Origin: a virus
Strand: one strand, 5' to 3'
DNA length: 40,357 bases
Virus record (IMG/VR): IMGVR_UViG_3300045988_095878
Coordinates: 1 to 40,357 of that record
In this document: positions 1,914 through 40,357 of the stretch, piece after piece
How positions within the stretch are numbered: the stretch's first letter is position 1
Layout of the letters: every line of letters begins with the position of its first letter
Translations under genes and position numbers: made by a program
The notes under the pieces: generated by a model
Told to the model about the DNA's origin: nothing
Seen by the model: the letters and a program-made list of their open reading frames with translations, nothing else
The model's database searches: none

Positions 1914-2016
1914 TTTTCTGTTCTCCTCTCGGATAGTTGATGCACTTCGGGTTTCGGCAGACCCATTTTGTCGCGTTCGTCTTGGTCATTTCAATGCCGC
2001 ATTTTGGGCACTTCAT
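1906..2016 (-). CDS. 36-aa zinc-ribbon microprotein (MKCPKCGIEMTKTNATKWVCRNPKCINYPRGEQKNG)
   Basis: Hand translation. It has CxxC...CxxxxC spacing. Its ATG overlaps the portal stop (ATGA) and its stop overlaps the next gene start (AATGGCTAA). It is below the ORF-track length cut-off. Confidence 0.5.
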   Translation of the reverse strand: MKCPKCGIEMTKTNATKWVCRNPKCINYPRGEQKNG

Positions 2017-8520: not shown

Positions 8521-8532
8521 GTTGTTTCCTCC

Positions 8533-8584
8533 TTACTTACCGAAAACAGGGCGAGTCTCCCCGCCCTGTTCCCTTGGTAAGTAA
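8533..8584 (-). terminator. Compound nested hairpin between the holin and adaptor genes
   Basis: Outer arms are ttacttacc (8533-8541) and ggtaagtaa (8576-8584). Inner arms are aacagggcg (8545-8553) and cgccctgtt (8562-8570). T residues follow on the minus strand. Confidence 0.5.
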
Positions 8585-9385: not shown

Positions 9386-9412
9386 TCGTTTCTCCTGTCT
9401 CACTTTGAAGCG

Positions 9413-10372
9413 TCAGCCCGGATCGCCGAAGATGATTTGCCGGGCGTCGCCCCAGCCCACGCCGAAGTCGGCATACGCCGTGTACAGATCCACCAGCGGG
9501 TTATCCTGCTCCTGCTGCATGACGGTCGGGCGCGTGTTGTAGACGATGTTCACGATTTCCTTCATCAGGCGGCGGTCGCACACCGCCCACTGCTTGCCCG
9601 TGAAGCCGTCCGCACCGCCGCCCATGACGATATAGCGCATACCATACACGGGGTTCGCGGCGTTCGTGTTGTCCTCCGGGTTCTGCGTCGGCATCAGACG
9701 GGCGTTCTCGCCGAACATCTTCTTCGCCTTTTCCTCCAGCTCGGGCGCGATCAGAACGGTGTCAAAATCGCACAGGAACGGCATTCCGTCCGGCGTGACA
9801 AAGCGGTTGGCGCGAGCCTGCGCCGCCGTGATGGCGGAAACGGAAAAGGCGTCCGTGGAGATGTTGGAATACGTCCCGGCGTCGGTGTCCGCCTCGAATC
9901 TGCGTCCCTTCGATCCGCGGGAGGCGACCGGGTGCGCGGCGTTCGCCCAGCTTACGCCGTCGCCGCCGTTGTGGCGGCCGTCGGCGTTCCATGCGTTGGC
10001 GAACATGCGCAGCACGTGCAGATACACCGTGAGCGCCGCGCTGTCGCCGAGCTTCGAGCCGACCTTCTTCGTCTCGCCCATCTTGTCGATCTTCGCCTGC
10101 TTGTAGCCGACGGGGATGGAGAGCGTGTACTCCACCGGCGTGATGACGGTCTTGAAGCCGCGTTTGAGACTGCCGGTATTCAGATTGCTGCCGTCATACT
10201 CCGCCATCTCGCCGTAGCCGCCGGAGCCGGTCAGCTCATAGTCGATGCTCTTGGCGTTCACCTCGCCGATGACGGGGGAGAGCTTGTTCAGACGGTCGGC
10301 ATACGCAAAGTCGAACGCCTTGCCGACAAACTTGTAGTTGTCGGTCTTCCAGTTTTCAAAAATATTAGGCAT
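9413..10372 (-). CDS. Major capsid protein, HK97 fold, Mu gpT-like
   Basis: 319 aa, with RBS gaaggagg. It sits after the scaffold and decoration-like genes. The N-terminal segment layout (YELTGSGGYGEMAEYDGS...FKTVITPVEYTLSIPV) parallels Mu gpT. Confidence 0.8.
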   Translation of the reverse strand: MPNIFENWKTDNYKFVGKAFDFAYADRLNKLSPVIGEVNAKSIDYELTGSGGYGEMAEYDGSNLNTGSLKRGFKTVITPVEYTLSIPVGYKQAKIDKMGETKKVGSKLGDSAALTVYLHVLRMFANAWNADGRHNGGDGVSWANAAHPVASRGSKGRRFEADTDAGTYSNISTDAFSVSAITAAQARANRFVTPDGMPFLCDFDTVLIAPELEEKAKKMFGENARLMPTQNPEDNTNAANPVYGMRYIVMGGGADGFTGKQWAVCDRRLMKEIVNIVYNTRPTVMQQEQDNPLVDLYTAYADFGVGWGDARQIIFGDPG

Positions 10373-16660: not shown

Positions 16661-16826
16661 TCCTTTTCCTCCTCGTCGTAACGTTATCCTTTTAACAGGT
16701 CCGTAAAAATTCGCGCACGCGCACGCGAATTATATAAGGTATCGTCGCAGGTTTTTCCGCCCTCATTTCTGCCGCCGTCCTCCGGCAGCAGAAATCAAAG
16801 CAGAAAACAAATTGTAATACGCCGCC

Positions 16827-18843: not shown

Positions 18844-20402
18844 GCATTTTCAAAGTTCTGTATCTCCTTGGTGCGCGCACAGTTGCACATGCCCCGGTTC
18901 TCCGTCACCGATAGCCGCTTCTCGTTGAAGTTGAGCGTATACCACGGCTCGTCCGGCTTGTCCTTCCGCCGGATAAGGAAGATCGTGAGCTCTCCCCGTG
19001 CGTGCCGCTCGGCGTAGGAGTCGACGCAGTGGTGCAGCGCCTTTCCCTCGGCGATGAGCTCCTCCTCCGTCTCGCACGGGCGGAGGAAGATATTGCCGTC
19101 CTCGAAGGCGTACTTTTTCATGCGCTCATAGCGCTGTTGAAAAGCCTCCCGGCGCTTCTCCGCGGCCTCTGCCTTCTGCCGCTCCTGCATCTGATCGTGC
19201 GCCCGCTTGAGATTCTGCGGGAACAGAACGTCGCGGTCTGTGAGATCCTCTCCCGCCATCTCCGCCATGCTCCAGTAATCCAGCAGATAGTTGAACCACA
19301 GCGAATTTTTGTACCGCTTTTTCTGCCTGGCGATATACGCCTCCGCCCGCGACGGCAGCACCCCGCGCTTCAGGCAGCCCTCCTGCTGCTCCTCCGCCGT
19401 CGCCGTGACCTCCTCGCCGAGACGGCAGGGAACGTTATATTTCCGGGCAAGCAGCAGCGCCTTCAAGCGCTTCGGCGCGTCCTCCGCGCCGTTGAAGTAG
19501 TTGAGCTCCTCCTTCGTCATCCGCAGCAGCTCGTGCGGCTTTTTTGCCTTCCATTTTATGTTGTGCAGAACGTCGGTCTTCTCCGACCAGTATTTGTTAT
19601 ATGTCGGAGAGCGCTTCCCCTCGGCGATGAGAGCCGCCGCGAGCTTTCTTGCGTTCGGCGCCATCAGCGCCTCGGCGTTTTTGTGCCGCTGCCAGGTCTT
19701 CATCCATGCGACCGGGAATCGGTATTCCGTCTCCACTCCCATATAGGTCTCCAGCTTGCAGTTGGCGCACTCCGTCTGCGCGTATATGTTCGCCAACCCC
19801 TCCGGGCAGTACACGAGATCCACGTCCAGCATCGAGTCGGCAAACCGCTTCCGCTCCTCCCAGCCGGGGATGATGTAGGTCGTGGTCATGTATTTCTTCC
19901 AGTGCCGCCAGCGTGCGGCGCTCGTCCTGCCGAAGGCGTATACCTCCCACGGATCAACGCGCCATGTGACGCGCCCGCTCTTCTCCACGTCCCGGCACAC
20001 GCGCCAGAGATAGAGAATGAGCTTCCCGCCCTGCGCCTCCGCCGTCATGGGCCATACATAGCGCTTGAGCTGTGTCGCGCTCGAAATGTGCCGCGCCTCC
20101 ACCTCCTCGCCGCACATCGGGCAGGCGAGCTTGTCGCCGCTTATGAGCGCGTCCCCGCTCGCCGGATGCATAAATCCGAACGGGGCGCTGTATCCCGCGT
20201 GCCCGCAGCCGCCGCCCGGCACATACGAGAGCTTCACCGTCTCCCCACACGCCGAGCACACGGCATCCACGCATTTGTGCCGCAGCCCCGTCAGCGGCTC
20301 CGTCTGCCATCCGGCGCGGTAGACGAAATAGTCCCGCCAGTCGAGCTTCTGCGCCTTGATCCAGTCCAGCAGCCCCTCCGGCGGCGTTTCCGAGAGAGTC
20401 AT
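18792..20402 (-). CDS. PcfJ-like protein (536 aa) with N-terminal Cys-rich regions
   Basis: The C-terminal LIAEGKALHHCVDSYAERHARGELTIFLIRRKDKPDEPWYTLNF matches the PcfJ-like domain signature. Its ATG overlaps the upstream stop (ATGA). Confidence 0.75.
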   Translation of the reverse strand: MTLSETPPEGLLDWIKAQKLDWRDYFVYRAGWQTEPLTGLRHKCVDAVCSACGETVKLSYVPGGGCGHAGYSAPFGFMHPASGDALISGDKLACPMCGEEVEARHISSATQLKRYVWPMTAEAQGGKLILYLWRVCRDVEKSGRVTWRVDPWEVYAFGRTSAARWRHWKKYMTTTYIIPGWEERKRFADSMLDVDLVYCPEGLANIYAQTECANCKLETYMGVETEYRFPVAWMKTWQRHKNAEALMAPNARKLAAALIAEGKRSPTYNKYWSEKTDVLHNIKWKAKKPHELLRMTKEELNYFNGAEDAPKRLKALLLARKYNVPCRLGEEVTATAEEQQEGCLKRGVLPSRAEAYIARQKKRYKNSLWFNYLLDYWSMAEMAGEDLTDRDVLFPQNLKRAHDQMQERQKAEAAEKRREAFQQRYERMKKYAFEDGNIFLRPCETEEELIAEGKALHHCVDSYAERHARGELTIFLIRRKDKPDEPWYTLNFNEKRLSVTENRGMCNCARTKEIQNFENAWLEWIHSGRKRRTSAA

Positions 20403-20788
20403 AAAAACGCCCCCAGATCAATGATCCCGGCGTTGCCCCCATTGTCGCCCGTAGGGGCGCTGCTCTGCTCCGCCCGCGCCGTCAGCCCGTAAAATTCCCG
20501 CAAAATCCTCTCCGCCTCCACGGGCGTCACGCACGCAAAGCTCCCGGTTTTGTGCGCGTCGGCATACGCCTTGATTTTCTTTTCGGCGTTCTGAATGCTC
20601 ATCTCCGGAACATCGAGATCCTTGTCGAGCAGCTCCGCGCTCTCCAGCTCGCGCCGGGCCATGTCCTTGAGCTGCTCTCCCACCATCCACGCGGCGGTGC
20701 GCCCCTTCTCCTTCGCCTGCTGCCGCTCGATCTTCTCCACGGCCGACATAAACATCCGTCCTTTCTGCGACCTGCCATCCTCAGGCAT
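20399..20788 (-). CDS. PcfK-like protein (the family that includes AcrIIA9), tentative
   Basis: It lies immediately upstream of PcfJ-like, which is the usual pairing. The segment KKIKAYADAHKTGSFACVTPVEAERILREFYGL resembles the PcfK core. The likelier start is ATG 20749, after aaagga. Confidence 0.5.
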   Translation of the reverse strand: MPEDGRSQKGRMFMSAVEKIERQQAKEKGRTAAWMVGEQLKDMARRELESAELLDKDLDVPEMSIQNAEKKIKAYADAHKTGSFACVTPVEAERILREFYGLTARAEQSSAPTGDNGGNAGIIDLGAFL

Positions 20789-20828
20789 GGGCGGTCATCC
20801 CCATGCGACGGGCTTCCGCCCGTTTCGG

Positions 20829-20909
20829 CTAAAAAATATGCCCCAGCACCGCGAGCAGCGCCGCCGCAGCGGCGCACGCCCCACAAGCCCATAAAACCCG
20901 CTCCTTCAC
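20829..20909 (-). CDS. Possible 26-aa hydrophobic peptide (VKERVLWACGACAAAAALLAVLGHIF)
   Basis: GTG overlaps the upstream stop (GTGA). Its first ~40 nt are duplicated at about 21650-21690. Confidence 0.3.
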   Translation of the reverse strand: MKERVLWACGACAAAAALLAVLGHIF

Positions 20910-21624: not shown

Positions 21625-21681
21625 TTGTTTGCCCTCCTGTTCCACCGCCACACGCCCCGCACGCCCACAAAACCCGCTCCT

Positions 21682-21984
21682 TCATTCCGCGATTTCCTTT
21701 CTATGCTCATCAGCCAGCATCTCGTCTATGTCCTTTGCAGCCTTATCAAGCGCTTCAGCGAAGGTTTTTCCCGTATATGTGTAGCAGATTTCCGGATCGC
21801 CGATGGAATAGACATTCAGGGTGATTCGCCACAGGACATCTTTCTCATCGGAAAAGCAGCCAGGAAACTCTCGGGCGACCTGGAGCCATCCGTCAGATGG
21901 CCTTCGTTTTCCCCCTGCCGCCTTTTTGACCGCATCAAACACCCTCTGTCGAAGAGCAAAGAAAGCGTTCCATTCAACGCTCAT
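21682..21984 (-). CDS. Hypothetical protein (100 aa)
   Basis: The ATG overlaps the paralogue A stop (ATGA). No motif was recognised. Confidence 0.5.
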   Translation of the reverse strand: MSVEWNAFFALRQRVFDAVKKAAGGKRRPSDGWLQVAREFPGCFSDEKDVLWRITLNVYSIGDPEICYTYTGKTFAEALDKAAKDIDEMLADEHRKEIAE

Positions 21985-22638: not shown

Positions 22639-22837
22639 GCCGCCCTCCCCGGAGGATCGCCGCGTCCGGCATGCGCATCCAGCGGCACAGATCGGCGGCG
22701 AACGAGCCGTAGCCGTAAAGCGCGAACAGCGCCTCCACGATCCCGAACCCCTTTCCGTTCAGCCAGATAAAGAAGATCACCGCGCTCATCAGCGTCATTA
22801 CGAGCGCCGTCACAAACAACGCCTTGCTTCGGCTCAT
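22631..22837 (-). CDS. Small membrane protein (68 aa, two TM segments)
   Basis: MSRSKALFVTALVMTLMSAVIFFIWL...EALFALYGYGSFAADL. The ATG overlaps the upstream stop (ATGA). Confidence 0.55.
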   Translation of the reverse strand: MSRSKALFVTALVMTLMSAVIFFIWLNGKGFGIVEALFALYGYGSFAADLCRWMRMPDAAILRGGRHG

Positions 22838-23097
22838 TTTTCTTTCCTCTCTCTCGTCTTTTTGGGGCAGAAGTGGAATTTGTGGGCGCTGCCCCGCGCC
22901 TCGTATTCGCCGCACTCGATCACCGGCAGCGGCGTGCCGTTGTTGGTGTAGAGCGTCACCATGTCGCAGCTGCTCTCCTCGGCGTTTCGGAAGCGGTACG
23001 GCGTCAGCTCCGCCTCCACGCACAGCAGCCCCCGCGGTCCCGGTACGAACATCACCGGCTTCTTGCAGTACCTGCACTTAATTACCTTCGGAATCAT
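22834..23097 (-). CDS. Small Cys-containing protein (87 aa)
   Basis: RBS aaggaaggag precedes the ATG. Motifs CRYC...C...C and HKFHFC are present. Confidence 0.55.
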   Translation of the reverse strand: MIPKVIKCRYCKKPVMFVPGPRGLLCVEAELTPYRFRNAEESSCDMVTLYTNNGTPLPVIECGEYEARGSAHKFHFCPKKTRERKEK

Positions 23098-23115: not shown

Positions 23116-23370
23116 TTAAGGCTCCCTTGTGTAAGGGTAGCTGTCAGCCGTCAGGCTGACCAAGGGATTGTCGTCCCCCGTCGCTTCCTTCCTCCGTTTC
23201 CCACACCACGCCGGCGTCGGGATCCGGTCCGGGTAGGGATTGCCGGCGCTCGTCACGCCCAGCACCCGCCCGAAATACCGTCCGTTCCCCACGCAGAAGC
23301 ACCGTACCGCCGTTTTCCCCTGCGGCCACTGCTCCAGCGCGATGTGCGGGCAGTCCCGGCACGTCATCAT
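23116..23370 (-). CDS. Small Cys-rich protein (84 aa); the last 18 codons are supplied by repeat copy 2
   Basis: MMTCRDCPH...CFCVG...WCG. The C-terminus DNPLVSLTADSYPYTREP plus the stop lies inside the repeat. Confidence 0.5.
   Translation of the reverse strand: MMTCRDCPHIALEQWPQGKTAVRCFCVGNGRYFGRVLGVTSAGNPYPDRIPTPAWCGKRRKEATGDDNPLVSLTADSYPYTREP
23119..23170 (-). repeat. Two-hairpin repeat element, copy 2
   Basis: aggctcccttgtgtaagggtagctgtcagccgtcaggctgaccaagggattg. The second stem is gtcagcc/ggctgac. Confidence 0.8.
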
Positions 23371-23948
23371 GTTTTCACCCTCCCGTGCGAGTTCTGCGGG
23401 TTGTGCGCCGGCAGTCCCAGCCGGGTGCGGCTCTTCTGCACCGTCTGCCGCGATGTGCCGAGCCTCTCCGCAATCTGCGTATCGTTCATCCCGGCGCCCC
23501 AGAGCCTCCGGAGCGTCTCCGGCTCGATCCGGTCCTTGTGCGGGTGCGGCGGCAGCCCCGCGCCTATGCGCCAGTTTCTCACCGTATCGCTGTAGCAGCC
23601 AATCTCCTTGGCGATGGCGCGGTCGGTGTACCCCTCATCGTAAAGCGCCCGGAACTGCGCCCAGTCGTATCTCTTCCCGCCGGTGCGCCGCCGGAGATCC
23701 TCCTTGCGCGGGACGACCGGCTTCTTCCGCCGCGGCGGGCTTTTCGCCGACACTGTGATCAGCTGCTTGTCCGGCGTCGCCCTCTCCCCCGGCGCGTAAA
23801 GCCCGCACCTCCGCGTGATGTCCGCCTCGCCGAGACTGGTTTTCGTCCGCCCGGTAATGAAGAAGTAATTGCAGCTCGGTACGCCTCCGTCCACGCGCCC
23901 GGCGTGATACCGGCAGCTCGTCCGGTAGCAAATATATGGGTCCTTCAA
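23367..23948 (-). CDS. DNA-binding protein with two HTH motifs (193 aa from TTG 23948)
   Basis: YTDRAIAKEIGCYSDTVRNWR and MNDTQIAERLGTSRQTVQKSR are HTH-like. The TTG overlaps the HNH stop (TTGA) downstream of gaggaggagg. There is no in-frame ATG near the 5' end. Confidence 0.55.
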   Translation of the reverse strand: MKDPYICYRTSCRYHAGRVDGGVPSCNYFFITGRTKTSLGEADITRRCGLYAPGERATPDKQLITVSAKSPPRRKKPVVPRKEDLRRRTGGKRYDWAQFRALYDEGYTDRAIAKEIGCYSDTVRNWRIGAGLPPHPHKDRIEPETLRRLWGAGMNDTQIAERLGTSRQTVQKSRTRLGLPAHNPQNSHGRVKT

Positions 23949-24304
23949 AACGGCAACAGCGCCTCCTCCTCGATCAGATGAAAGGCTTCCTCGTTGTCCC
24001 AGTCGCGGCTCGGATGCTCCAGCTCCCAGATCTCCGCCTCGTCGAGGTAGTTCTTCCCGAAGTGCGCGATAAACTCCTCCACGCCCCAGCCCTGCTCCTT
24101 CATCGCCCGGCGCTGCCCGTACCGGTGCAGCAGCTCGGCGGTCTCGTCGCTCCGGTGGGCGCTGTCTGCGTCGATCCGGTGGCACCACGGGCAGAGATGG
24201 ACAGTCAGCCCGTACTTCGTCGATGCTGGACGCCGCGCCCCGCCGAAAATGTGGTGCTCCTCGAGCTGCTCAAAATTCCCGCACAAAAAACAAATGCCTT
24301 TCAT
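23945..24304 (-). CDS. HNH endonuclease (119 aa)
   Basis: MKGICFLCGNFEQLEEHHIFGGARR...GLTVHLCPWCHR gives the CxxC...HH...CxxCH signature. RBS gaaagga lies 9 nt upstream. Confidence 0.7.
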   Translation of the reverse strand: MKGICFLCGNFEQLEEHHIFGGARRPASTKYGLTVHLCPWCHRIDADSAHRSDETAELLHRYGQRRAMKEQGWGVEEFIAHFGKNYLDEAEIWELEHPSRDWDNEEAFHLIEEEALLPF

Positions 24305-24335
24305 CGTTCTTCGTCCTTTCCAAAATGTCTCCCGA

Positions 24336-24445
24336 AGCTCCCTTGCCTCCCCTAACAGGGGAGGTGTCAGCCGAAGGCTGACGGAGGGGTTCAGGCTCCC
24401 TTGTGCAAAGGGAGCTGGCTCGCCGTAGGCGAGACTGAGGGATTG
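24336..24445 (-). repeat. Two-hairpin repeat element, tandem copies 3a (24336-24392) and 3b (24393-24445)
   Basis: 3a: agctcccttgcctcccctaacaggggaggtgtcagccgaaggctgacggaggggttc. 3b: aggctcccttgtgcaaagggagctggctcgccgtaggcgagactgagggattg. Confidence 0.8.
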
Positions 24446-24645
24446 TCGCCCTCCCCTGTAAACCAGCGGAGCCACTCCGCCGCGCGGTAACGCGAGATCT
24501 GAAACGTCCGCTGTTTTCCCTTGATGCAGATCGCAAAGGGATAAACTCCCTGCTCGATCCCGTCTCCCAGAGTCACCAGAGACGTTGAGATTCCATGCGC
24601 CCGAAACTCCGCCGCCAGCTCGACCAGCGTCATCGTCGGTTCCAT
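24391..24645 (-). CDS. Small winged-helix/excisionase-like DNA-binding protein (84 aa), tentative
   Basis: RBS aaggaggtgggg precedes the ATG. TLVELAAEF...QRTFQISRYRAAEWL resembles Xis/MerR-type HTH layout. The last ~18 codons (DNPSVSPTASQLPLHKGA) come from repeat 3b. Confidence 0.4.
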   Translation of the reverse strand: MEPTMTLVELAAEFRAHGISTSLVTLGDGIEQGVYPFAICIKGKQRTFQISRYRAAEWLRWFTGEGDNPSVSPTASQLPLHKGA

Positions 24646-25606: not shown

Positions 25607-26014
25607 ATGTCCGTAGCAACCAGAACAAAGGAGCTTCGCAAGGCTCTTGGCCTCACGCAGCAAGAGTTTGCAAACCGTCTTCACATTACGCGCGGTGCCG
25701 TATCCAACTGGGATCTGGATATTACTTCCCCTTCGGATGCCGCAATCTCACTAATCTGCCGTGAGTTCGATGTTAACGAAGACTGGCTCCGTTCCGGCGA
25801 AGGAGAAATGTTTGAGCAGCTCACGGAGGACGAAGATCGCGCCCGCTTCTTTGGTTCTCTCGCCAAAGGGGACGCCTCGCCCGAAGTACTGGCGTTCATC
25901 GACGCCCTGCGGAAAACACCTGAATCCGCTATCCGTCCCGCTCTCCAGTTCATCCGTGAGATCTACGAATCCTACAACGCCCTGCAAAAAGAAAAAGGAA
26001 GCGAATCGAAGTGA
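25607..26014 (+). CDS. CI-like XRE-family repressor
   Basis: KELRKALGLTQQEFANRLHITRGAVSNWDLD is a canonical XRE HTH. It is divergent from the lytic operon. ATG 25607 lies 8 nt after ggagg; the track start is GTG 25598. Confidence 0.85.
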   Translation: MSVATRTKELRKALGLTQQEFANRLHITRGAVSNWDLDITSPSDAAISLICREFDVNEDWLRSGEGEMFEQLTEDEDRARFFGSLAKGDASPEVLAFIDALRKTPESAIRPALQFIREIYESYNALQKEKGSESK

Positions 26015-32573: not shown

Positions 32574-35500
32574 TTACCTTGAACTCGGCAGCTTGCCGTG
32601 CTTCAAAAAGTAGTCCAGCGGGCTGCCCCCCTTGATGGTGATCGTCCGGTTGCCGTGCTTGATCACGGTGTCCACGGCTTTCTCCGTCGCCTTGCGGATG
32701 TCCGTTCCGCCCGACATCTTCGCAAAGTCCGCGATGGCGTTTCCTTTCGTTCCGTTGGTCGAGACCTTCGCCTCCGGAATTACGTTCTTCGCCGCCTTCG
32801 GCGCGGCGGGAGCCTTGAGCGCCTTTGCCTTTCTGCTGCGCCGTCCGCCCCTGCCGGAGCCGCTGCCTCCGTTCCACGGCTGATACCGCAGGCTGTTCTC
32901 CTTGTACCCAGCGGCAATGTACAGCGCGTCCTTCTGCTCGGCGGGAATGTCGAGCGAGTTGATGTACTCCACGACCTTTTTCTTCTTTGACCCGGAAATG
33001 CTCTTGCCGTTCTCGTCCTTGTCGGCGTGCATATCCTTCGTGGCGAAATAGTAGTCGTAGTAGGTGTCGTAGCTCACGCCCTTACCGTAGGCGGTGCGTG
33101 CCTTGTCGTACACGTCCGAGCTGTACGTTTTCAGCGCGTACTCCGCGCCGAAGATCTCCCGGTTGATCTCGCGGTAGACGATGGCGTCCATGCGGCTCTC
33201 CGCCTGCTCCTCTGTGATGTCGTACTTCTCAGCGAACTCCGCAATGGCGGCGTCGTTGTCGGAGGAAAGCTCCGGATGCTCCTTGAGATACTTGTTCACC
33301 GCCTCGCGGTACGGCTCCGACTTGGCGATGATCTCCCTCTGCCGCTCAATGAGCTGCGCCTTCAAAGCGCGGACGAGCCGGTTCTTTTCGCCCTTGGAAA
33401 GCGTCTTGTCGTTCTGTATCTCGCGGATCTGCGCGTAGTAGTCGTTCACCGTGTCCCCGGCGTGGGAGACATACCGCCGCGTGATTTCCGCGCCGAGATC
33501 CCCGTCGTTCTTATCGTACTTGAGATCATCCAGCAGGTCGTAGTACTCGCTCGTCACGCGGTTGTTGCTGGTTGTGTCGATGGTGAACGCCGCCTTCGGC
33601 GCAGCGAGCAGCGGGTGCGACGCGCTCGTCGCCGGCGTAATGTGCGGCAGGAGGATGTCTCCGATGACGCCGGAGTACTGATCCAACAAATAATTGATCT
33701 TCTTCGGCGACAGGTTGAACGTTTTTCCGATCCATTTGGAAAGCTCGTCCGTTTTCTCGTCGTACCGCTCGCCCGGTCGGTAATTCTGCAATCTCTCGCT
33801 CTCGATGTTCCCGCCGTACCACGTCGTGCCGGGGTTGTCCGAGTTGAGGAGCTTTGTCTGCGTCCACGCCGTCGCGATGTTCTGATTGAAGATGTCCGTC
33901 GGGGCGACGTTGCTTTTGATTACCTCGAACACGTCGGAAAACTTCACGTCTCTGCCGTTGAGCTTCTCCTGCCCGTACACCGCGGCGGTACTCAGCACGG
34001 CAATGGCGCGTCCCTTCGGGATCTTGATCCAGTAGCCATTTCCCCATTTGATGAGATAGTAGTTCGCTTTCGTGTTGGCGGGGATGTCGTCCCACTCGTC
34101 ATCGTCGCCGTGCATAAGACCGTTCAACAGCAGCGGCGGCAGATTGATAAGCGCCGCTTTCAGAATGAGCGTCGCAGCCGCTTTCACGTCCCGCCGCTGC
34201 ACAATGTCCGTGGCGTTCCGGATAAATTTGTCGAACCCCTGCACGGACGGGTTGAGGAACGGCACAAAATACCGGTTGAGCGCCTTCGTCACGGTGCCGC
34301 CGCGGGCAAAGTTTGTCGTGATGTCCGCCGCGCCCAGCATCGCCTCCATCAGGTCGTTCTGCGTGAATTTCCCGGTTTTCACTCCGTTCACCGTCTTGCT
34401 CCCGCCCTTGTTGGCGAGGATGGTCATAAACTCCGCAAGACGGGGCGCAGCTTCGATTGCCTGTCCGAACGACTCATATTTTGCCCACACCTTCCCCGCA
34501 AGGCTTTTCGGCTCCTTCACCATGCCGGTCGTATAGTCCAGCATGGAGGCGTAGGAGCCGCCCAGCGCCTTGTACTGCTGCCAGATTTCGCCGTTCCTTG
34601 CGATCTGCACAATCGCCACCGGGTACATTTTTTCCCACGTGGTCCAGTCCGTGGAGTAGAACCCCGCGTCCTGCCAGTCGCGCACGGCGTTCCGCACCAT
34701 GAAAAACGGGTTGTACCCTGTGCAGAGAGCCTTGAACAGGTCGTTGAGCTTTTTCAGCCCCTGCGCCACGGGGAGATTGCCGTATTTGTCCGGCTGGAAC
34801 GCATTCAGCGCCTGCGTCAGCCCCTCGTCCATCGTGATGTCGTAAACCTTTCCGTCGCGCTTCACCGAGAAGATGTTTTGGAATACCGGCTGGTAATCCT
34901 CGTCGCTTTCGATGACGGCGTCCGTCGGCGTATACTCGCTTTCCGCGACATTCCAGATATACTTTTCCACGCGCTTTTTGTTGCCCTCGTATTCGTCCAG
35001 CAGCGCGGCTCCGAGCTGGTTTATGCCGGCGTTTCGCATCACGGATACCGTTTTCCGGCTCAGTGCGGTGTGCAGCGGCAGCAGCACAGCGTCGTCGCCT
35101 ACAGCTCTTCCTATGGCGTTCGACACGGTAATCCCGCCGTTTTTCCGGGCTTTTCTCCCCGCTCTGCTGTTTGTTCCTTCTCGCAGCGTGGGAACGTAAT
35201 GCGGGTAACGCTTTTGCAGATTCCGAGCATACTCCGCCGTAATGAGTCCCGCTCTGACGCGATAAGCAAGCAGGTCGTCGGAATACTTGTATACTTCCTT
35301 TGCCCATTGCTTGAACTCCGGGTTGGTATCCTCCAGCAGCTTTGCCGTTTCGCGGCTTTCTTCCGCCGTCACTTCGTATCCGAACACGGGCTTCAGTCCC
35401 TGCCGCTCCGCAATGCTTCTCTGCTTTTCCAGCTCCAGCACATACGCGGCGGCGGTCGCAACGGACGTTATCCTGCGCGGCTCGCCCTTGTGGGCAGCAA

Positions 35501-38500
35501 GGAACACTTCATGCGCCTCCGCCCGCACGACCGGCGAATCGCCGTCATATTCCACGATCTGCCGCAGCTCGTTTTTAGACAGCTCCCGGAGCTGGGGGAA
35601 TTTGTCCTTCACCCATTTAAGATTTTCTTTGATTTTCGCTATCTCCGCGGAGTTGTCGTACATCATGCGGTCTACGTTGTGCATATGGTAGAGATACAGC
35701 TGGAAATCCCGATACTTTGCCTCATTCTTCCGCATCGGTGCAAGCGTGTCCGCAAGACTTGATCCGATCTTGTGTCCGTCGATGTCGGTGCGTGCGCCGC
35801 CCTTGGTGATCCAGTTTCCCGCTCGCTGCGAATACGCCCCGGCGTTGAAGTAGTAGCCCTCCAGACTTTTGTTTCCGGTCGCCTTGGCGATCCGCCGCAC
35901 CGTGTCCCCGGCGTTCACGAACATCCGCATAGCGCCGCTCGAAATGCTCTCCATATTCTCCCGGAAGCTCTTCGCCGTCTTTGTGACCTCGGTAGTGATC
36001 TTCCCTGCCGTTGCCTCGTCCGTCGTGGCAGCTTCCAGTCTTGCCGCCGTCCGTTTTTTCTCCTGCTCGGCGGCAGCCGCATCTTCGGAATCTCCGAACA
36101 GCTCGGCAATGCGGGCATCCTCCTCGGCGGTTCTTTCCGCCTCCAGCTTCTTCGCTCTCTGGAAATTTTCCTCCGAGAAATTTTTGTTTGCCTGTGCATC
36201 GACGTACTCTGCGGCGTTTCGTGCCGCCACTTCCTTCAAGGGGCTGGACTCCTTGTATATCTGCCTCCCCGCGTGCTGGATCGTCGCGGTATGATTGACG
36301 CCGAGCGCGTCGGATTCCAGCTTGACCTTGTACACGGTCGTCCTCGGCTGATCCATTGAGATCGGCGCTGCCACTTCGGACTTTCCGCTGCTCATCAGCT
36401 CGCGGTATACCTGCCCCGCACCCTTGTCCGGCGCCGGGCGTCCATACCCGCGGTTGGCTCTGGCAAGCGTCTCGTCCTTTCTCATCAGCCGGGCAGCTTC
36501 CTGCCGGTCCTGCTGTGCCATCTTTCGGAACCATTCCCGGCGCTTGTCGGCTTCGTTCTGCTCTTCCACCTCTACGCTCGCCCGCCCGGAAGAAGCCTTC
36601 TGCACCACACCTCCGAGCTCGCTTAATTTTTTCCCTGTAATCTTGACACCGTCTTCGGCATATGCTATATTGCCTATAGAGCCATACGGTGGTTGGCGTG
36701 ACGGGAATTGTACCCTGAGCTGCATCAGCCACGTATCGGCTCTATTTTTGTTTGTGTCAAGGTACAAAAGTTCCGAGTTGTTGATCAGGTTTTGCAGGTT
36801 TCCGACAGATCTTCCGTAAGCGCTCGTCACGAGGGAAAACTCCGCTTCCGTCCTTCCGCCCGGCTTTGGTGTTAGCTCCAACGCGACCATCAGATTGTTT
36901 CCGTTTTTTGCCTTTTCTTCGCTCAGCAGCACGATGCTGTCCGACCGGGTAAGTGACTTCATAATCAAAACCGGGTTTTCGAGAATATCCGGAACCTTTT
37001 TGATGACATCCGCGGTTACTTCCGGGTGTTCCTCAAAGATTGTCCCGATCTTGCTTTTCCGCATATAGATGTTGTCCGTCCTTGCGCCGATGCTTTGCAG
37101 CGCCTCGGATGTCGTTCCCACGCGGAAATAGCCCGGCGACGTACTCAGCGCATCCACCGGCGTATTCTTCACCCAGTCGTCTACGTTCTTCCCGAAGTTC
37201 TCGTCAATGCTGTAGCTTGTCGTGTACCCATCCGCAAACACGGTATCCGCGTCGCCCAGATCGGGCGGCGTTTTTTTGCGCTCCTCGGCGGTCATCCGGC
37301 GGCGTGCGGCGGTGTCTCTCGCCTCGATCTCCCCGGCGGTGTTCCAGTAGAACTCTTTCACCGCTTCGCTCGCGTCGCCGAGAATGCGGTCGTACCGGTT
37401 CAGCTTTCCGAACCATTCCTTTCCGTAAAGCTCCCTGTACAGCTCGTCCGAGCGCTTCTCCAGCTCGTCCATTCGGCTTTCATCGTAGAGCACGGAGCCG
37501 TCGAGCATCGCTCCCATCTCGCGTTCAGTGCTGCGGTACTCGTCGTACAGCGCCCGATCCTCTGCGCTCAGACCATGGAGAAGCCGCGCCCGATTATCCC
37601 GATATTTTTCCGTCGCTTCGTTGTAGGTCGCCTCCCGGTTCCAGTATTGCGGGCTTGCGCCGCCGGTAAAGCCTTCCGTATTCTGTATGACGTGCTGGAG
37701 CTCGTGCAGTACAACGTCGGTCTCTTCCCCGAACAGAGAATCGCTCAGGATGATCGTGTTGTCCCGCTTGCTGAAATAGCCCTTTTGTCCATCCGGCAGA
37801 GAGTCGAACCTTACTGTCACGTTTTTCAGATCGGGGTATGCTTCAAAGAGCTTCGGATGGTTTATATACTCTGCCAAAGATAAATCATTTTTCCCCGCAG
37901 ACGCGCTCATTTTTCCTTCCAGCGCTGCGGCGAAGTTCTCAAACTCGTCCCCCAACACATCGGTCAGCTGCTGATAGGTTTTATCGCTGAACTCACCTCT
38001 TTCTCGCTGGCTTACGTACTCTCTGAGCATTCCGCGCTGTTCATTCGTTAGCCCGTCACCCGTGAGATTCTTGAACCGCGCCGTGTATTCCCGCAGAGCC
38101 TGAGTTTTTTCACGTTCCGACACGTAGGCTTTCCGAGTTTTCATCCCGGAATCGTCGATTTCAAAGCGCCATTTGCCGTCTCTGCCGCGATACCAGCCCG
38201 TTTCCTGCCGGATGGTCTCATTGTCCGTCCCGCTCTTTTCCAGCGCTTCTGCGCGGCGCAGGGCGGCGCTGTCGGCGGTTCTGGCGTTGATTCCCGCCGC
38301 ACTCGCTTTGCCCGGCGGTCCCGTCGTCTCCTGCTGCGTCTCGGTTCTCTGAGCCGGGGCGCTTTTTTGCGTCTCGGCGCGGATGGCGTCGCCGATCTCG
38401 CCGCGACCGTAGAAGAAATTCAGCCCCGCATAGGCGTCCGCCGCGATCTCCTCGGTGAGCAGCCGCTCGATTTCGTCCACGCTCATGGTCTCAAAATCAT

Positions 38501-40357
38501 AGATGCCCGCGTAGGCGTCCCGGTAGCTCTCATACATGGCGTCGTACTCCTCGGCGGTCATGCTCTCGCGTACCACGTCGTCCGCCGTCCGGATCATCTC
38601 CTCCGTGGCGTTTGCGTGGAAAAGCTCATGCTCCGCGATCAGCGCCGGGGAGACGGCAAGCCCGCTCCCGGTTTTCGCGTCCACGCGGAAATATACCCTG
38701 CCGTTTTCCACATAGCCGTTCACCGCCGTGCCGTTGATGAACATCTCGCCGCGGAACGCCACCGGCTCCATTCCGGCGGCAGTCACCTTGTCATACGCCG
38801 CCTGCGCTCTGGTGTCGAGCCGCTGCGCGTCCACGAGCGTGATCGTCTCGTTCCCGCCGCCGCGGATGCCGAGCTGCGCCGGGGTTACTTGCCGTAGATC
38901 CGCCTGCGTGTACGCTCCCACGCCTCCCGGAATTTCTTTTCCGCCGCCGGCGAGAGCTTGCGCTCCTGCTTCGGCGGCAGCTTGTCCGCCGGCGCGGAGA
39001 CCAGCATACCCGTTTTCTCGTCCCTGATAAGCGCTCTGTCCATTGTTCAAATCTCCTTCCGTATTCTGGATTTCCTGCGCGGCAGCCGCGACAGGCGACT
39101 GAGGGATTGTCGCTTCCTCTCTCTGCGCCGTATTGGCGGCTGTAGGCGCGTTTTTTGTCTGGGCAGTATAAGTACTCTCCTTCGCATCGGAACGCGCTCC
39201 TGCCTCCATCTGCTGCGTCATATACGCCGCAGCGCGTTCCATGTCTTTCCCCGTGCCGACCTTTGCCCGGAGTTCGTCCGCGTTCTTCGCGTCCACCAGC
39301 TCCGCCAGTGCGTACACCATGCCGGGGTCATCCGTTTTCGCGTCCCGCATCATCCGAACGACGTCCTGCGCCGTCGTGTCCAGCTGCTCCGCCACATAGT
39401 TAACGTATTGTTTATTGCTGTAGCTCTGTACGGTGCTGCTGCCGACGGAAGCAAGTGCGCCGCCGAGGAAGGAAAGCCCCTCCTGTCCGAGAACGGCGGC
39501 GAACGTCGCAAGCTCCGGGTGTTCCTTCTGGAACGGCGTGCCGTTCTGCTTGTAATACTCCAGCATCTTGGGAATGCCGCTCTCCTGCGTGCCGAAAAGC
39601 GCGTCCACCACGAGGTTTACCGCGCCGTTCGCCGCGTCCGACATCACTTCCTCCACGCCCTCCGGAGCCATAGCCAGCAGCACGCTTTTTATGAGATTCG
39701 TCGGGTTCTGTTTGAAGATTTTGATCGCCCACTCGCCGCCGACGGCTTCCGAGGCAAATTCAATGGCGCCGCGGGTAAGTCCGAGCGCGAGCGCCCCCTC
39801 GTTGGAATAGCCCTTTTCCTTGCTCTCGGCAATGGAGAGGGACGCCACCTCCGAGGACATCGCCAGCGAGCCGATGACGTTCGTCGCCGACATCAGCGCA
39901 GGTCCGGAAAAACCTGCCGCTTCTCCGAAGCCTTTTGCGACCAGCATATTCACAGCGCTGTCCGCGGCGCTCATCGCCGTGTTGTAAACAAAGCTGCCGA
40001 CCTTGCCGCCGAGACCCGGGTTTGTCTCCTCGATGTGTGATGCCGTGTCTCCGCGCAGCTCCTGCGTGATGTTGCTCGGCTGTCTCCACTTGGAATACGG
40101 ATTGATCTCCTGCCCGCGCAGCGACCGGACCGCGTCCTCTCCCATGGCGATTACGCTTGTCAGATTCCGCACCGGCTGCGCCGCAACGGTCATGGCGCTG
40201 GCAAGCGCTCTCGTCCCCGCGTTCTTGCCCAGCGCTTCCACAGTGCCGCGGTTCGCTCCGGAAAACCACTGCTTGTCCAGCTCCGGCTCGATGTCGCTCA
40301 GAAACCGGTTGGCGGCTCTTCTGCCCTGCGTGGCGTAGAGGTAGTTGTATACGCCGA
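32574..40357 (-). CDS. Main body of the giant polyvalent-type virion protein; about 2,761 aa in total after joining to 1..601
   Basis: The frame is uninterrupted. Two HExxH motifs are present (HELFH 38616-38630, HELQH 37692-37706). There is an LPD-like WYRGRDGKWRFEIDD, a GEIEARD motif and a MuF_C-like segment (about 36747-37139). The track start at 40241 is an internal GTG. Confidence 0.85.
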   Translation of the reverse strand, partial: GVYNYLYATQGRRAANRFLSDIEPELDKQWFSGANRGTVEALGKNAGTRALASAMTVAAQPVRNLTSVIAMGEDAVRSLRGQEINPYSKWRQPSNITQELRGDTASHIEETNPGLGGKVGSFVYNTAMSAADSAVNMLVAKGFGEAAGFSGPALMSATNVIGSLAMSSEVASLSIAESKEKGYSNEGALALGLTRGAIEFASEAVGGEWAIKIFKQNPTNLIKSVLLAMAPEGVEEVMSDAANGAVNLVVDALFGTQESGIPKMLEYYKQNGTPFQKEHPELATFAAVLGQEGLSFLGGALASVGSSTVQSYSNKQYVNYVAEQLDTTAQDVVRMMRDAKTDDPGMVYALAELVDAKNADELRAKVGTGKDMERAAAYMTQQMEAGARSDAKESTYTAQTKNAPTAANTAQREEATIPQSPVAAAAQEIQNTEGDLNNGQSAYQGRENGYAGLRAGGQAAAEAGAQALAGGGKEIPGGVGAYTQADLRQVTPAQLGIRGGGNETITLVDAQRLDTRAQAAYDKVTAAGMEPVAFRGEMFINGTAVNGYVENGRVYFRVDAKTGSGLAVSPALIAEHELFHANATEEMIRTADDVVRESMTAEEYDAMYESYRDAYAGIYDFETMSVDEIERLLTEEIAADAYAGLNFFYGRGEIGDAIRAETQKSAPAQRTETQQETTGPPGKASAAGINARTADSAALRRAEALEKSGTDNETIRQETGWYRGRDGKWRFEIDDSGMKTRKAYVSEREKTQALREYTARFKNLTGDGLTNEQRGMLREYVSQRERGEFSDKTYQQLTDVLGDEFENFAAALEGKMSASAGKNDLSLAEYINHPKLFEAYPDLKNVTVRFDSLPDGQKGYFSKRDNTIILSDSLFGEETDVVLHELQHVIQNTEGFTGGASPQYWNREATYNEATEKYRDNRARLLHGLSAEDRALYDEYRSTEREMGAMLDGSVLYDESRMDELEKRSDELYRELYGKEWFGKLNRYDRILGDASEAVKEFYWNTAGEIEARDTAARRRMTAEERKKTPPDLGDADTVFADGYTTSYSIDENFGKNVDDWVKNTPVDALSTSPGYFRVGTTSEALQSIGARTDNIYMRKSKIGTIFEEHPEVTADVIKKVPDILENPVLIMKSLTRSDSIVLLSEEKAKNGNNLMVALELTPKPGGRTEAEFSLVTSAYGRSVGNLQNLINNSELLYLDTNKNRADTWLMQLRVQFPSRQPPYGSIGNIAYAEDGVKITGKKLSELGGVVQKASSGRASVEVEEQNEADKRREWFRKMAQQDRQEAARLMRKDETLARANRGYGRPAPDKGAGQVYRELMSSGKSEVAAPISMDQPRTTVYKVKLESDALGVNHTATIQHAGRQIYKESSPLKEVAARNAAEYVDAQANKNFSEENFQRAKKLEAERTAEEDARIAELFGDSEDAAAAEQEKKRTAARLEAATTDEATAGKITTEVTKTAKSFRENMESISSGAMRMFVNAGDTVRRIAKATGNKSLEGYYFNAGAYSQRAGNWITKGGARTDIDGHKIGSSLADTLAPMRKNEAKYRDFQLYLYHMHNVDRMMYDNSAEIAKIKENLKWVKDKFPQLRELSKNELRQIVEYDGDSPVVRAEAHEVFLAAHKGEPRRITSVATAAAYVLELEKQRSIAERQGLKPVFGYEVTAEESRETAKLLEDTNPEFKQWAKEVYKYSDDLLAYRVRAGLITAEYARNLQKRYPHYVPTLREGTNSRAGRKARKNGGITVSNAIGRAVGDDAVLLPLHTALSRKTVSVMRNAGINQLGAALLDEYEGNKKRVEKYIWNVAESEYTPTDAVIESDEDYQPVFQNIFSVKRDGKVYDITMDEGLTQALNAFQPDKYGNLPVAQGLKKLNDLFKALCTGYNPFFMVRNAVRDWQDAGFYSTDWTTWEKMYPVAIVQIARNGEIWQQYKALGGSYASMLDYTTGMVKEPKSLAGKVWAKYESFGQAIEAAPRLAEFMTILANKGGSKTVNGVKTGKFTQNDLMEAMLGAADITTNFARGGTVTKALNRYFVPFLNPSVQGFDKFIRNATDIVQRRDVKAAATLILKAALINLPPLLLNGLMHGDDDEWDDIPANTKANYYLIKWGNGYWIKIPKGRAIAVLSTAAVYGQEKLNGRDVKFSDVFEVIKSNVAPTDIFNQNIATAWTQTKLLNSDNPGTTWYGGNIESERLQNYRPGERYDEKTDELSKWIGKTFNLSPKKINYLLDQYSGVIGDILLPHITPATSASHPLLAAPKAAFTIDTTSNNRVTSEYYDLLDDLKYDKNDGDLGAEITRRYVSHAGDTVNDYYAQIREIQNDKTLSKGEKNRLVRALKAQLIERQREIIAKSEPYREAVNKYLKEHPELSSDNDAAIAEFAEKYDITEEQAESRMDAIVYREINREIFGAEYALKTYSSDVYDKARTAYGKGVSYDTYYDYYFATKDMHADKDENGKSISGSKKKKVVEYINSLDIPAEQKDALYIAAGYKENSLRYQPWNGGSGSGRGGRRSRKAKALKAPAAPKAAKNVIPEAKVSTNGTKGNAIADFAKMSGGTDIRKATEKAVDTVIKHGNRTITIKGGSPLDYFLKHGKLPSSR
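39092..39109 (-). repeat. Partial (3' half) copy 4 of the two-hairpin repeat, inside the giant gene
   Basis: caggcgactgagggattg is identical to 2132-2149. It is translated as IPQSP in the same frame as in the portal. Confidence 0.7.
40259..40357. repeat. Terminal direct repeat, second copy of 1..99
   Basis: The 99-nt sequence is identical on direct reading. Confidence 0.9.

Follow-up and report, generated by a model that had tools for sequence, protein, structure and literature searches.

A hairpin repeat shared by a phage and gut Clostridia looks like a new relative of the BoxC/REP-type selfish repeats and frames DUF559 nuclease genes in bacteria

The DNA analysed here is a phage sequence of 40,357 nt (IMG/VR record IMGVR_UViG_3300045988_095878, positions 1 to 40,357), hereafter the window. 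It contains four full copies and one truncated copy of a structured repeat, present singly or in tandem only. A covariance model built from 55 other copies of the repeat (R1) placed all of them on the + strand, antisense to the genes, and gave no match in the window beyond these five loci:

2101..2149, + strand: copy A, subfamily 1a (R1 76.8 bits at 2102-2148)
23119..23170, + strand: copy B, subfamily 1a, slightly decayed (R1 45.3 bits at 23120-23169)
24336..24392, + strand: copy C, sister subfamily (R1 38.8 bits at 24345-24391)
24393..24445, + strand: copy D, subfamily 1a (R1 59.2 bits at 24394-24444)
39081..39109, + strand: truncated copy (R1 14.9 bits, E 0.02, at 39081-39108)

A preliminary description of this DNA had reported a repeat at these five loci, in a single orientation relative to transcription and clustered in the early region. 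All five loci and the uniform orientation were recovered. A cluster does exist at 23-24.5 kb, but 2 of the 4.5 copies lie outside it, one of them in the 3′-terminal part of the portal gene, the other inside a long ORF. The sequence said to be shared was only partly so: allowing up to 3 mismatches, the 25-mer AGGCTCCCTTGTGYAAAGGGAGCTG is found at 2101, 23119 and 24393, and in none of 100 shuffles, but is absent from the sister-subfamily copy at 24336-24392, and the shared 3′ box is exact in three copies but reads CCAAGGGATTG at 23160.

Copy A falls in the 3′-terminal part of the minus-strand portal ORF 2013..3887 (assigned via PHROG 156), which reads through it as ..AIPQSPAATAPFTQGSL.. and continues for 29 aa. 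In its hairpin 1, 2103-2110 pairs with 2116-2123; in hairpin 2, 2125-2130 pairs with 2134-2139; the putative purine third-strand box occupies 2140-2148. Copy B has an indel and a mismatch in hairpin 1 (GGGTAG) and a stem 2 of GTCAGCC/GGCTGAC. The last ~18 codons and the stop codon of ORF 23116..23370 (minus strand), whose translation ends in ..GDDNPLVSLTADSYPYTREP, come from copy B, whose end is separated by 21 nt from the downstream start of ORF 22834..23097. Copies C and D form a direct tandem of a type that recurs at other sites in relatives. Copy C consists of a left box GCTCCCTTG, hairpin 1 (CCTCCCC/GGGGAGG), hairpin 2 (GTCAGCC/GGCTGAC) and a mirror box CGGAGGGGTT, in that order, and has the sister-subfamily signature CCTCCCC TAAC AGGGGAGG with the flank CGGAGGGGTTC; it is located ~30 nt upstream of the ATG at 24304 of ORF 23945..24304 (minus strand). 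Copy D has hairpin 1 GGCTCCCTT/AAGGGAGCT, stem 2 CTCGCC/GGCGAG and the box CTGAGGGATTG; the minus-strand ORF 24391..24645, whose translation ends in ..GEGDNPSVSPTASQLPLHKGA, takes its C-terminus and stop codon from this copy. Nothing but the 3′ half of hairpin 2 with the box CTGAGGGATTG is left in the truncated copy; the long minus-strand ORF 32574..40241 reads it in frame as ..EEATIPQSPVAAA.., and the alignment of relatives breaks at ~39049, near this copy. The possibility that the repeat is a coding unit for a selected peptide was rejected because the copies are read in different frames.

Two hairpins are predicted for each full copy, whether the transcribed strand is folded as RNA (z −2.6 to −4.2) or the + strand as DNA (z −4.3 to −5.0); the computed folds comprise Watson-Crick hairpins only. 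Stem 2 had been described as paired in every copy and as covarying; it does pair in every full copy of the window, and a larger alignment confirmed the covariation. In an ungapped alignment of 55 copies, 98.3% of the cells were paired and changes on both sides were seen in 8 of the 14 pairs, with a covariation score of 0.240 against 0.077 in shuffled alignments (reached by 0 of 500 shuffles). The segment is hypervariable, with 168 distinct middle segments among 264 copies, nearly all of them perfect hairpins of 4-9 bp. The suggestion that a downstream TCGCC pairs alternatively with the 3′ arm in several copies was not sustained. It holds in two copies only, and in relatives GTCG(T/C)C is constant while stem 2 changes, so the alternative pairing shows no covariation.

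The conserved 3′ box CTGAGGGATTG mirrors the purine arm of hairpin 1. Box and arm covary over at least seven arm variants, with G corresponding to G, A to A or T, and C to T. With a TTG as the anchor for reading the flank, the counts were as follows:

arm AAGGGAGCT, box CTGAGGGA: 95/114
arm AAGGGAGGT, box CGGAGGGA: 25/31
arm AGGGGAGGT, box CGGAGGGG: 16/19
arm AGGGGAGCT, box CTGAGGGG: 3/3
arm AAGGAGGGT, box CGGGAGGA: 3/3
other subfamilies: arm GGGAGAG, box GAGAGGG; arm GAGGGGG, box GGGGGAG; arm AGGGAAA, box AAAGGG

An exact mirror 7-mer followed downstream in 92 of 730 hairpin-strands, compared with 12 for the direct repeat and ~0.5% for each of the other permutations. Loci selected by protein only replicated the result (mirror 46, direct 20, permutations ~1%). 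An antiterminator-like switch, in which the box would pair with the 5′ arm by Watson-Crick bonds, was rejected, as cognate and non-cognate combinations gave −9.7 and −9.0 kcal/mol, respectively. Alternative Watson-Crick pairing of 5-6 bp may nevertheless form because the purine tracts are nearly mirror-symmetric. As far as sequence comparison can tell, the mirror covariation indicates an antiparallel purine-motif intrastrand triplex, as in the BoxC/PIT/TMECO elements. In two subfamilies, with GGGAAGG and GGGGAAG arms, the box carries a TG insertion (GGATGAGG), which fits a triplex awkwardly.

The BoxC/PIT/TMECO elements of E. coli consist of a pyrimidine tract, a purine tract and a mirror purine tract, and fold in vitro into an intrastrand triplex (Hoyne and Maher 2000; Holder et al. 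2015, PMC4666352). The repeat described here has the same order of parts (pyrimidine tract, loop, purine tract, connector and mirror purine tract, class II purine motif), with mirror boxes more frequent than direct repeats or permutations, and the same base correspondences of G to G and A to A or T. Both kinds are intergenic without strand bias on bacterial chromosomes, have two subtypes that pair in inverted orientation, and show frequent local deletion and variation. The differences are also clear. The second loop of the present repeat is a hypervariable hairpin of 4-9 bp (13-30 nt) whereas that of BoxC/PIT/TMECO is 3 nt, and the published finder, which takes loops of 1-6 nt only, would miss the clostridial repeat (PMC4666352). 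The arms are CTCCCTT/AAGGGAG or variants instead of CCCTCNCCC/GGGNGAGGG, and neither the short loops nor the consensus CCCTCNCCC..GGGNGAGGG..GGGNGAGGG is found in the clostridial and phage copies. The hosts are Firmicutes in contrast to Proteobacteria or Cyanobacteria, and the density is much higher. The clostridial repeat occurs in phage genomes, whereas TMECO was reported without association to phages or other mobile elements (PMC4666352).

The element was found well outside this phage, in many IMG/VR phage contigs and in metagenome-assembled genomes (MAGs) of Oscillospiraceae, Acutalibacteraceae and other Clostridia. Exact hairpin-1 matches were present in at least 120 stretches of these MAGs, in agreement with the earlier proposal of a host-type REP-like element. 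The window copy at 2100-2149 has a chromosomal counterpart of 98% identity, which also fits that proposal. R1 gave 202 matches (E ≤ 0.001) in 643 kb of genome loci, a density of ~1 copy per 3 kb in the fetched loci, and ~70 of the first 120 viral pattern matches were true copies. An inverted partner was located within 150 nt in 123 of the 221 parsed genome copies. A scan of the copies against Rfam, which the preliminary description had proposed, gave no match at the gathering threshold or at E ≤ 1, and a literature search with sequence and peptide strings returned unrelated primer matches only. The repeat itself was the sole match when phage sequence was sought in the bacterial genome loci.

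The preliminary description had also asked whether relatives lack individual copies, and they do. Near-identical phages carry occupied and empty alleles with flanks 98-100% identical. The site of copy B is empty in relative L046, and three sites that are empty in the window are filled in relatives:

8531..8537, no strand assigned: empty site; a 1a copy, as an insert of ~70 nt, in L002, L091, L081 and L085 (alignment A2)
9404..9415, no strand assigned: empty site; filled in relatives (alignment A1)
16744..16765, no strand assigned: empty site; a CCTCCCT/AGGGAGG-type copy in L025, L058 and L115 (alignment A4)

The first site is also empty in L058 and L112, again with flanks 98-100% identical. 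The second holds a sister-subfamily copy alone in L081, L112 and L085, and a sister-subfamily copy in tandem with a 1a copy in L058 and L019. No clean target-site duplication was found at the junctions, where only imperfect duplications of 6-9 bp and of varying form (TTACCG, TCTTTYC, GGCTCCC) were seen. The ends are mirror and not inverted repeats, so that the element, with neither terminal inverted repeats nor a fixed-length target-site duplication, is not a classical MITE.

An association with a nuclease gene was observed in the bacterial loci. In 13 of the 120 genome loci, a DUF559 gene (PF04480, E ~1e-29) has a forward 1b copy on one side and an inverted 1a copy on the other. It encodes a Vsr-like endonuclease of 116 aa, and its stop codon is inside the inverted copy. 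At metagenome DUF559 loci the repeat motif occurred within 130 nt upstream in 44 of 80 cases and downstream in 34 of 80, against a background of 0.09 per 260 nt. Different DUF559 lineages go with different repeat subfamilies. At least 8000 close DUF559 homologues were found, mostly on contigs of 0.5-1.5 kb. The enterobacterial DUF559 genes (YcjD) behave alike: at four different chromosomal sites all of them end in an inverted TMECO, with a forward TMECO adjoining, so that in both systems, by our own analysis, the stop codon of the DUF559 gene falls within an inverted copy. No DUF559 gene is encoded in the window or in the viral pattern-match loci L001-L120, and the whole of IMG/VR gave 22 DUF559 matches only; mobilisation in phages would therefore have to occur in trans. 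The mirror relation of box and arm, the inverted pairs and the flanking DUF559 gene were all absent from the preliminary description.

We regard the five loci as copies of a host-derived, non-autonomous REP/REPIN-like repeat, a known kind of element in a new variant. It has the look of a new relative of the selfish BoxC/REP-type repeats known from E. coli, not of a phage invention. The full reading, to which we assign a probability of about 0.6, is that of a selfish DNA repeat of Oscillospiraceae-type gut Clostridia that folds into a triplex, is mobilised by DUF559 and was repeatedly acquired by this phage lineage. A unit comprises, 5′ to 3′ on the + strand, a pyrimidine arm, a loop and the purine arm that pairs with the first arm to give hairpin 1, then a second hairpin that is free in sequence provided that pairing is kept, and a purine box mirroring the purine arm. 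In single-stranded or extruded DNA, and presumably in vivo, the box would fold onto hairpin 1 as an antiparallel purine-motif third strand, with G*GC, A*AT, T*AT and T*CG as the proposed triads and hairpin 2 as the connecting loop. In bacteria the units form inverted pairs, some of them framing the DUF559 gene, whose Vsr-like PD-(D/E)xK product may recognise the folded repeat; a nick or break followed by repair would then copy the repeats, in analogy to RAYT and REPINs. Against this scheme, strand transfer is, to our knowledge, beyond the reach of a PD-(D/E)xK nuclease acting by itself. The phage lineage would have taken up copies repeatedly. These lie between genes or at gene 3′ ends, are gained or lost among near-identical relatives, and alter the C-termini and stop codons of ORFs. 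The wider proposal that DUF559 (YcjD-type) is the dedicated partner of intrastrand-triplex repeats in general, both enterobacterial BoxC/PIT/TMECO and the clostridial/phage hairpin family, in a triplex-recognising selfish system, is more tentative, and we hold it at somewhat under even odds.

DUF559 could instead be a passenger or a homing gene merely using the repeats. As a homing-type selfish gene it would target the spacer of a repeat pair, the repeats being its landing site and spreading by some transposase or by replication slippage. The DUF559 fold gives a match to the homing endonuclease I-Bth0305I in the latter's catalytic domain (3R3P, E 6e-4), and the gene occupies the position of the 20-45 nt spacer in gene-less pairs. 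E. coli has one ycjD but 23 TMECO repeats, and in L241 the whole unit lies between 32-nt direct repeats, unlike a simple transposon. One enzyme gene with many repeats is, however, the rule for RAYT/REPINs also. In E. coli, a spread of ycjD 3′ fragments to other TMECO sites was not seen, with 1-2 places per genome. The covariation of repeat subfamily with DUF559 lineage fits a dedicated enzyme as well, and ~2 Mb of loci showed no alternative enzyme adjoining the repeats. We consider this the strongest of the competing explanations, though an unlikely one.

Slightly less probable is that the copies are cis-acting RNA elements kept by the phage as processing sites, 3′ exonuclease barriers or modulators of translational coupling. 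In phage T7, RNase III processing hairpins lie between the early genes as phage-specific RNA signals, likewise conserved stem-loops in one orientation between co-oriented genes; those hairpins are not high-copy host repeats and have neither a mirror box nor insertion polymorphism. The orientation is uniform for all 4.5 window copies and at all nine independent sites of the phage lineage, and among unpaired copies in viral contigs antisense orientation to the flanking genes prevails by 37 to 5. The RNA folds are strong, the copies closely follow stop codons, with the next ribosome-binding site 20-30 nt further on, and the hairpins hold sequences resembling Shine-Dalgarno (SD) and anti-SD motifs. 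On bacterial chromosomes, in contrast, the copies show no preferred orientation with respect to the flanking genes, 26 vs 27 overall and 14 vs 13 for copies without an inverted partner, on crude gene calls in these foreign loci. Such evenness speaks against a mainly strand-specific RNA signal, the alternative envisaged earlier beside the REP-like element. RNA base pairing also leaves the mirror covariation unexplained, near-identical phages dispense with individual copies, no U-tract follows the hairpins and no Rfam family matches. The bias in phages may reflect a constraint at the RNA or replication level, which the selfish-repeat model does not predict. On mRNA the copies are the C-rich strand with two stable hairpins and may stabilise upstream messages, an effect superfluous to the explanation.

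Movement of classical REPs or REPINs by a RAYT (Y1 HUH transposase) or an IS200/IS605-type enzyme acting on single-stranded hairpins is improbable, for all the general likeness. REP/BIME/REPIN elements and the present repeat alike are short, structured and extragenic and number hundreds of copies; both occur as inverted doublets of two subtypes and frame a small enzyme gene, with enrichment downstream of genes and an occasional copy inside an ORF. Divergent promoter regions are avoided here as well (25 convergent vs 6 divergent contexts of genome copies). However, the consensus lacks the GTAG head, the genes framed by repeats at the loci examined encode the PD-(D/E)xK nuclease DUF559 and not a RAYT, which is an HUH tyrosine transposase, and the repeat has an extra conserved hairpin and the mirror purine box. 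On the complementary strand, hairpin 2 of 1b reads CGTC-stem-GCCA, which by inspection resembles the CGTC head and CCA tail of the CGTC-tagged REPs; for these a dedicated transposase is likewise not known (Di Nocera et al. 2013, PMC3733652). Their stems are conserved and of 8-9 bp, those here hypervariable and of 4-9 bp, and the published CGTC families come from Proteobacteria, Bacteroidetes and some other phyla, Firmicutes not being among them (PMC3733652). That the GC-rich intergenic hairpins are intrinsic terminators or attenuators between early transcription units is very improbable, as most copies have no consistent T/U run after the hairpins in either orientation, one copy lies within the portal ORF and another within a long ORF, and PIT elements were reported to show no terminator activity (PMC4666352).

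The DUF559 link is the most novel lead of this analysis. The placement of the gene inside inverted repeat pairs in two phyla suggests a function for a widespread uncharacterised nuclease family and an origin for repeats that were reported without an associated enzyme. The case for the BoxC/PIT triplex was previously based mainly on in vitro work, and the mirror covariation adds comparative evidence for an intrastrand DNA triplex selected in cells. If the partnership is real, it would provide at once a function for DUF559, an origin for BoxC and comparative support for triplex selection in vivo, and DUF559 with its repeat would be a widespread nuclease-plus-repeat selfish system analogous to RAYT/REPINs.

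The repeat rewrites many ORF ends in gut Clostridia and their phages, and probably yields many spurious or chimeric "hypothetical proteins" (..DNPSVS..LPLHKGA, ..PFTQGSL..). It also breaks metagenome assemblies, and its recognition would improve annotation. Repeat-bearing phages could carry copies between hosts.

Fifty-five repeat copies, all from sources other than the window, were used to build a covariance model, which recovered the five repeat loci that the preliminary description had correctly located, and gave no match beyond these plus-strand loci in the window.

Repeat copies of the window, with covariance model scores, and three window genes
2102-2148, plus strand, repeat copy A, 76.8 bits
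2151-3887, portal gene
23120-23169, plus strand, repeat copy B, 45.3 bits
23367 to ~23930, HTH DNA-binding gene
24345-24391, plus strand, repeat copy C, 38.8 bits
24394-24444, plus strand, repeat copy D, 59.2 bits
24887-25525, HNH endonuclease gene
39081-39108, plus strand, truncated repeat copy, 14.9 bits

Copies A, B and D belong to subfamily 1a and copy C to a sister subfamily. Two hairpins were predicted in each full copy, whether it was folded as RNA of the transcribed strand or as plus-strand DNA (z ~-3 to -5), and the 25-mer of hairpin 1 had zero matches in shuffled sequence. Bases 1-99 are identical to 40259-40357, and this 99-nt terminal repeat indicates a circular assembly whose unit length is 40,258 bp (~40.26 kb). 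The G+C content of the window is ~60% and the minus strand carries most genes. The last ~18 codons and the stop codon of ORFs 23116..23370 and 24391..24645 are repeat sequence, copy A is read through by the portal ORF, and the truncated copy is read through by a long ORF. The recurrent peptides described earlier are by-products, since the copies are translated in differing frames. The long ORF (32574-40241, minus strand) runs for 2555 codons uninterrupted through the truncated repeat. In a different frame, a 52-codon ORF begins at 39043 from a start with a good ribosome-binding site. The long ORF may represent two genes joined by read-through at the repeat remnant.

The compensatory stem changes proposed from the window copies were upheld when 55 distinct copies were aligned without gaps. 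Pairing was kept in 98.3% of cells, 8 of the 14 pairs were altered on both sides, and the covariation score was 0.240 versus 0.077 in shuffles (0/500 reached 0.240). The signal collapsed in slid-alignment controls. Stem 2 is hypervariable, with 168 versions in 264 copies (4-9 bp, loops mostly 3-4 nt), and its pairing is almost always perfect. Hairpin 1 is near-invariant inside any one subfamily.

About 25 fetched phage loci are related to the window at 72-97% nucleotide identity, and they vary in repeat copies at intergenic sites. Relatives lacking individual copies exist: copy B is missing in the phage locus L046, and the ~70-nt insert that some relatives carry at window 8531-8537 is absent in others with 98-100% identical flanks. 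At 9404-9415 relatives have a sister-subfamily copy, either by itself or with a 1a copy in tandem, and more copy-variable sites lie at ~15.9, 16.75 and 20.45 kb. Only short imperfect duplications, and no terminal inverted repeats, were found at the insertion junctions, which do not reveal the copying mechanism. Repeat orientation is one-sided in phages, with one orientation common to all nine sites in the lineage, and this leaves room for the main rival explanation, an RNA-level or replication-level effect of the phage copies. In bacterial loci, as judged with a crude gene caller, orientation relative to flanking ORFs was even (26 vs 27) and contexts were convergent in 25 cases versus divergent in 6.

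The element occurs well outside the window genome. In a loose pattern scan of IMG/VR, ~70 of the 120 matches listed were true copies, consisting of GGCTCCCTTGTGYAAAGGGAGCTG, a variable palindrome and then CTGAGGGATTG. Among the matches listed in an exact hairpin 1 scan with one genome per species, nearly all were gut MAGs of Oscillospiraceae, Acutalibacteraceae, Faecousia, "Clostridia" and "Eubacteriales". The covariance model found 202 copies in 643 kb of bacterial genome loci, and there are many more subfamilies with different arm sequences. Copy A is 98% identical to one chromosomal copy, and no phage sequence besides the repeat was found in the bacterial genome loci searched. The window repeats belong to a clostridial repeat family and are non-autonomous copies derived from the host. 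Of the REP/MITE-like host element first proposed, the REP/REPIN-like behaviour in Clostridia stands, while the absence of terminal inverted repeats speaks against the MITE-like part. An Rfam search gave no matching family, and a literature search found no account of the element.

The conserved 3' box is no motif of its own but, unexpectedly, mirrors the purine arm of hairpin 1 and alters whenever that arm does. The flank was positioned solely by the TTG that comes after.

Purine arms of hairpin 1, their flanks and counts
arm AAGGGAGCT, flank CTGAGGGA, 95/114
arm AAGGGAGGT, flank CGGAGGGA, 25/31
arm AGGGGAGGT, flank CGGAGGGG, 16/19
arm AAGGGGGCT, flank CTGGGGGA, 3/5
arm AGGGGAGCT, flank CTGAGGGG, 3/3
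arm AAGGAGGGT, flank CGGGAGGA, 3/3

The rule also holds in other loop families. Among 7-mers after the hairpin the exact mirror occurred 92 times, versus 12 for a direct repeat and ~0.5% for other permutations; at loci chosen solely by protein similarity the values were 46, 20 and ~1%. Watson-Crick pairing of the box with the 5' arm was rejected as the cause of this pattern, with -9.7 kcal/mol for cognate versus -9.0 kcal/mol for non-cognate combinations, and several 5' arms were predicted to pair better with a foreign box than with their own. Mirror repeats are the product of no copying process that we know of, and the mirror covariation of box and arm thus points to selection. A G in the arm is answered by G in the box, an A by A or T, and a C by T. 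These correspondences match the antiparallel purine motif with its base triplets G*GC, A*AT, T*AT and T*CG. The purine arm runs to the base of hairpin 1, hairpin 2 begins two nucleotides on, and the box starts 0-1 nt past hairpin 2, so that hairpin 2 could act as a connecting loop. We infer a fold in which the box would turn back on hairpin 1 as a triplex, and the geometry fits it. An exception to the mirror rule is found in AA-arm subfamilies, which have ATGA in the box (GGATGAGG, GATGAGGGG; L023, L053, L090, L151, L175, L211 and other loci of the CCTTCCC/GGGAAGG subfamily), a constant 2-nt insertion at the mirrored position that lies outside the triplex model's account.

A precedent is BoxC of E. 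coli, also called PIT or TMECO, CCCTCNCCC-N3-6-GGGNGAGGG-N3-GGGNGAGGG, a class II purine-motif intrastrand triplex repeat whose triplex was demonstrated in vitro (PMC4666352). MG1655 has 23 intergenic copies without strand bias, in two subtypes paired in inverted orientation; their function is not known, and no mobile-element or phage link was found by those authors (PMC4666352). In the clostridial repeat the second loop is a hairpin, whereas in E. coli it is N3. The published search admits 1-6 nt loops only (PMC4666352), and therefore a motif with a hairpin as second loop escapes it. The clostridial family is REP/REPIN-like in genomic behaviour and BoxC/PIT-like in architecture, and its novelty is the hairpin in place of the second loop.

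In the bacterial loci, copies of subfamilies 1b and 1a often stand tail to tail as inverted pairs, separated by a spacer of 20-45 nt. For 13 of the 120 genome loci, a 116-aa DUF559 gene (PF04480, E ~1e-29) takes the place of this "spacer", with the forward 1b box GGAGGG(A/G)TTGTAA 5-8 nt upstream of its ATG and its stop codon inside the inverted 1a copy. Close homologues of the protein number at least 8000, and most of them lie on contigs of 0.5-1.5 kb, as one would expect of an assembly-breaking repeat; on one 275 kb contig the unit lies among ribosomal-protein and tRNA-synthetase genes. A strict detector was applied to 80 metagenome DUF559 loci selected by protein similarity (47-74% identity). 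It placed a triplex-type repeat no more than 130 nt from the gene on the upstream side in 44 loci and on the downstream side in 34, against a background of 0.09 per 260 nt. The sequences of arm and loop varied by DUF559 lineage. No DUF559 gene was found in the window or in viral loci L001-L120, and a search of all IMG/VR gave only 22 DUF559 matches, which indicates that the phage copies are non-autonomous. Among solved structures, the nearest are 3HRL and 3R3P, a homing endonuclease domain. We infer a role of the DUF559 protein with the repeats; to our knowledge, a PD-(D/E)xK nuclease does not transpose DNA on its own. In the bacterial locus L241, a 32-nt direct repeat AACCTGCCTATAAGCCGATTATCGCTATAAAAT (9861-9893 and ~10540-10572), far longer than the usual target duplication, surrounds a ~650 bp unit of forward repeat, DUF559 gene and inverted repeats. 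In L230 the DUF559 gene (2001-2369, minus strand) carries a TGA in frame at a position where its relatives encode Trp (..EERHL*YDFLR..), and this copy is probably decaying.

The clostridial DUF559 protein shares 41% identity with E. coli YcjD, whose gene occurs in 3378 of the 5426 complete E. coli genomes. In K-12 (L251, 1351.2-1351.8 kb) the end of the ycjD ORF is a decayed C-rich TMECO arm, and a canonical TMECO lies ~170 nt downstream. The 3' end of ycjD is also partly duplicated in K-12. In Enterobacter, Klebsiella and Kluyvera (L354-L359) the DUF559 gene occupies chromosomal sites other than that of K-12, and each stops within an inverted type B TMECO adjoined by a forward type A TMECO. 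Overall, ycjD-type genes ending in an inverted TMECO, with a forward TMECO alongside, were found at four different chromosomal sites in enterobacteria. A literature search found no mention of this arrangement.

The window also contains a type II hammerhead ribozyme (20766-20830, minus strand; 40.6 bits, E 5e-5, above the Rfam gathering score), overlapping the start of ORF 20399..20788, and near it a 42-nt repeat (20867-20908 and 21643-21684, 86% identical). A 97-nt direct repeat (25901-25997 and 27322-27418, 78% identical) is located at the ends of two plus-strand ORFs, and a 69-nt tandem duplication (443-580, 71% identical) lies within a minus-strand ORF.
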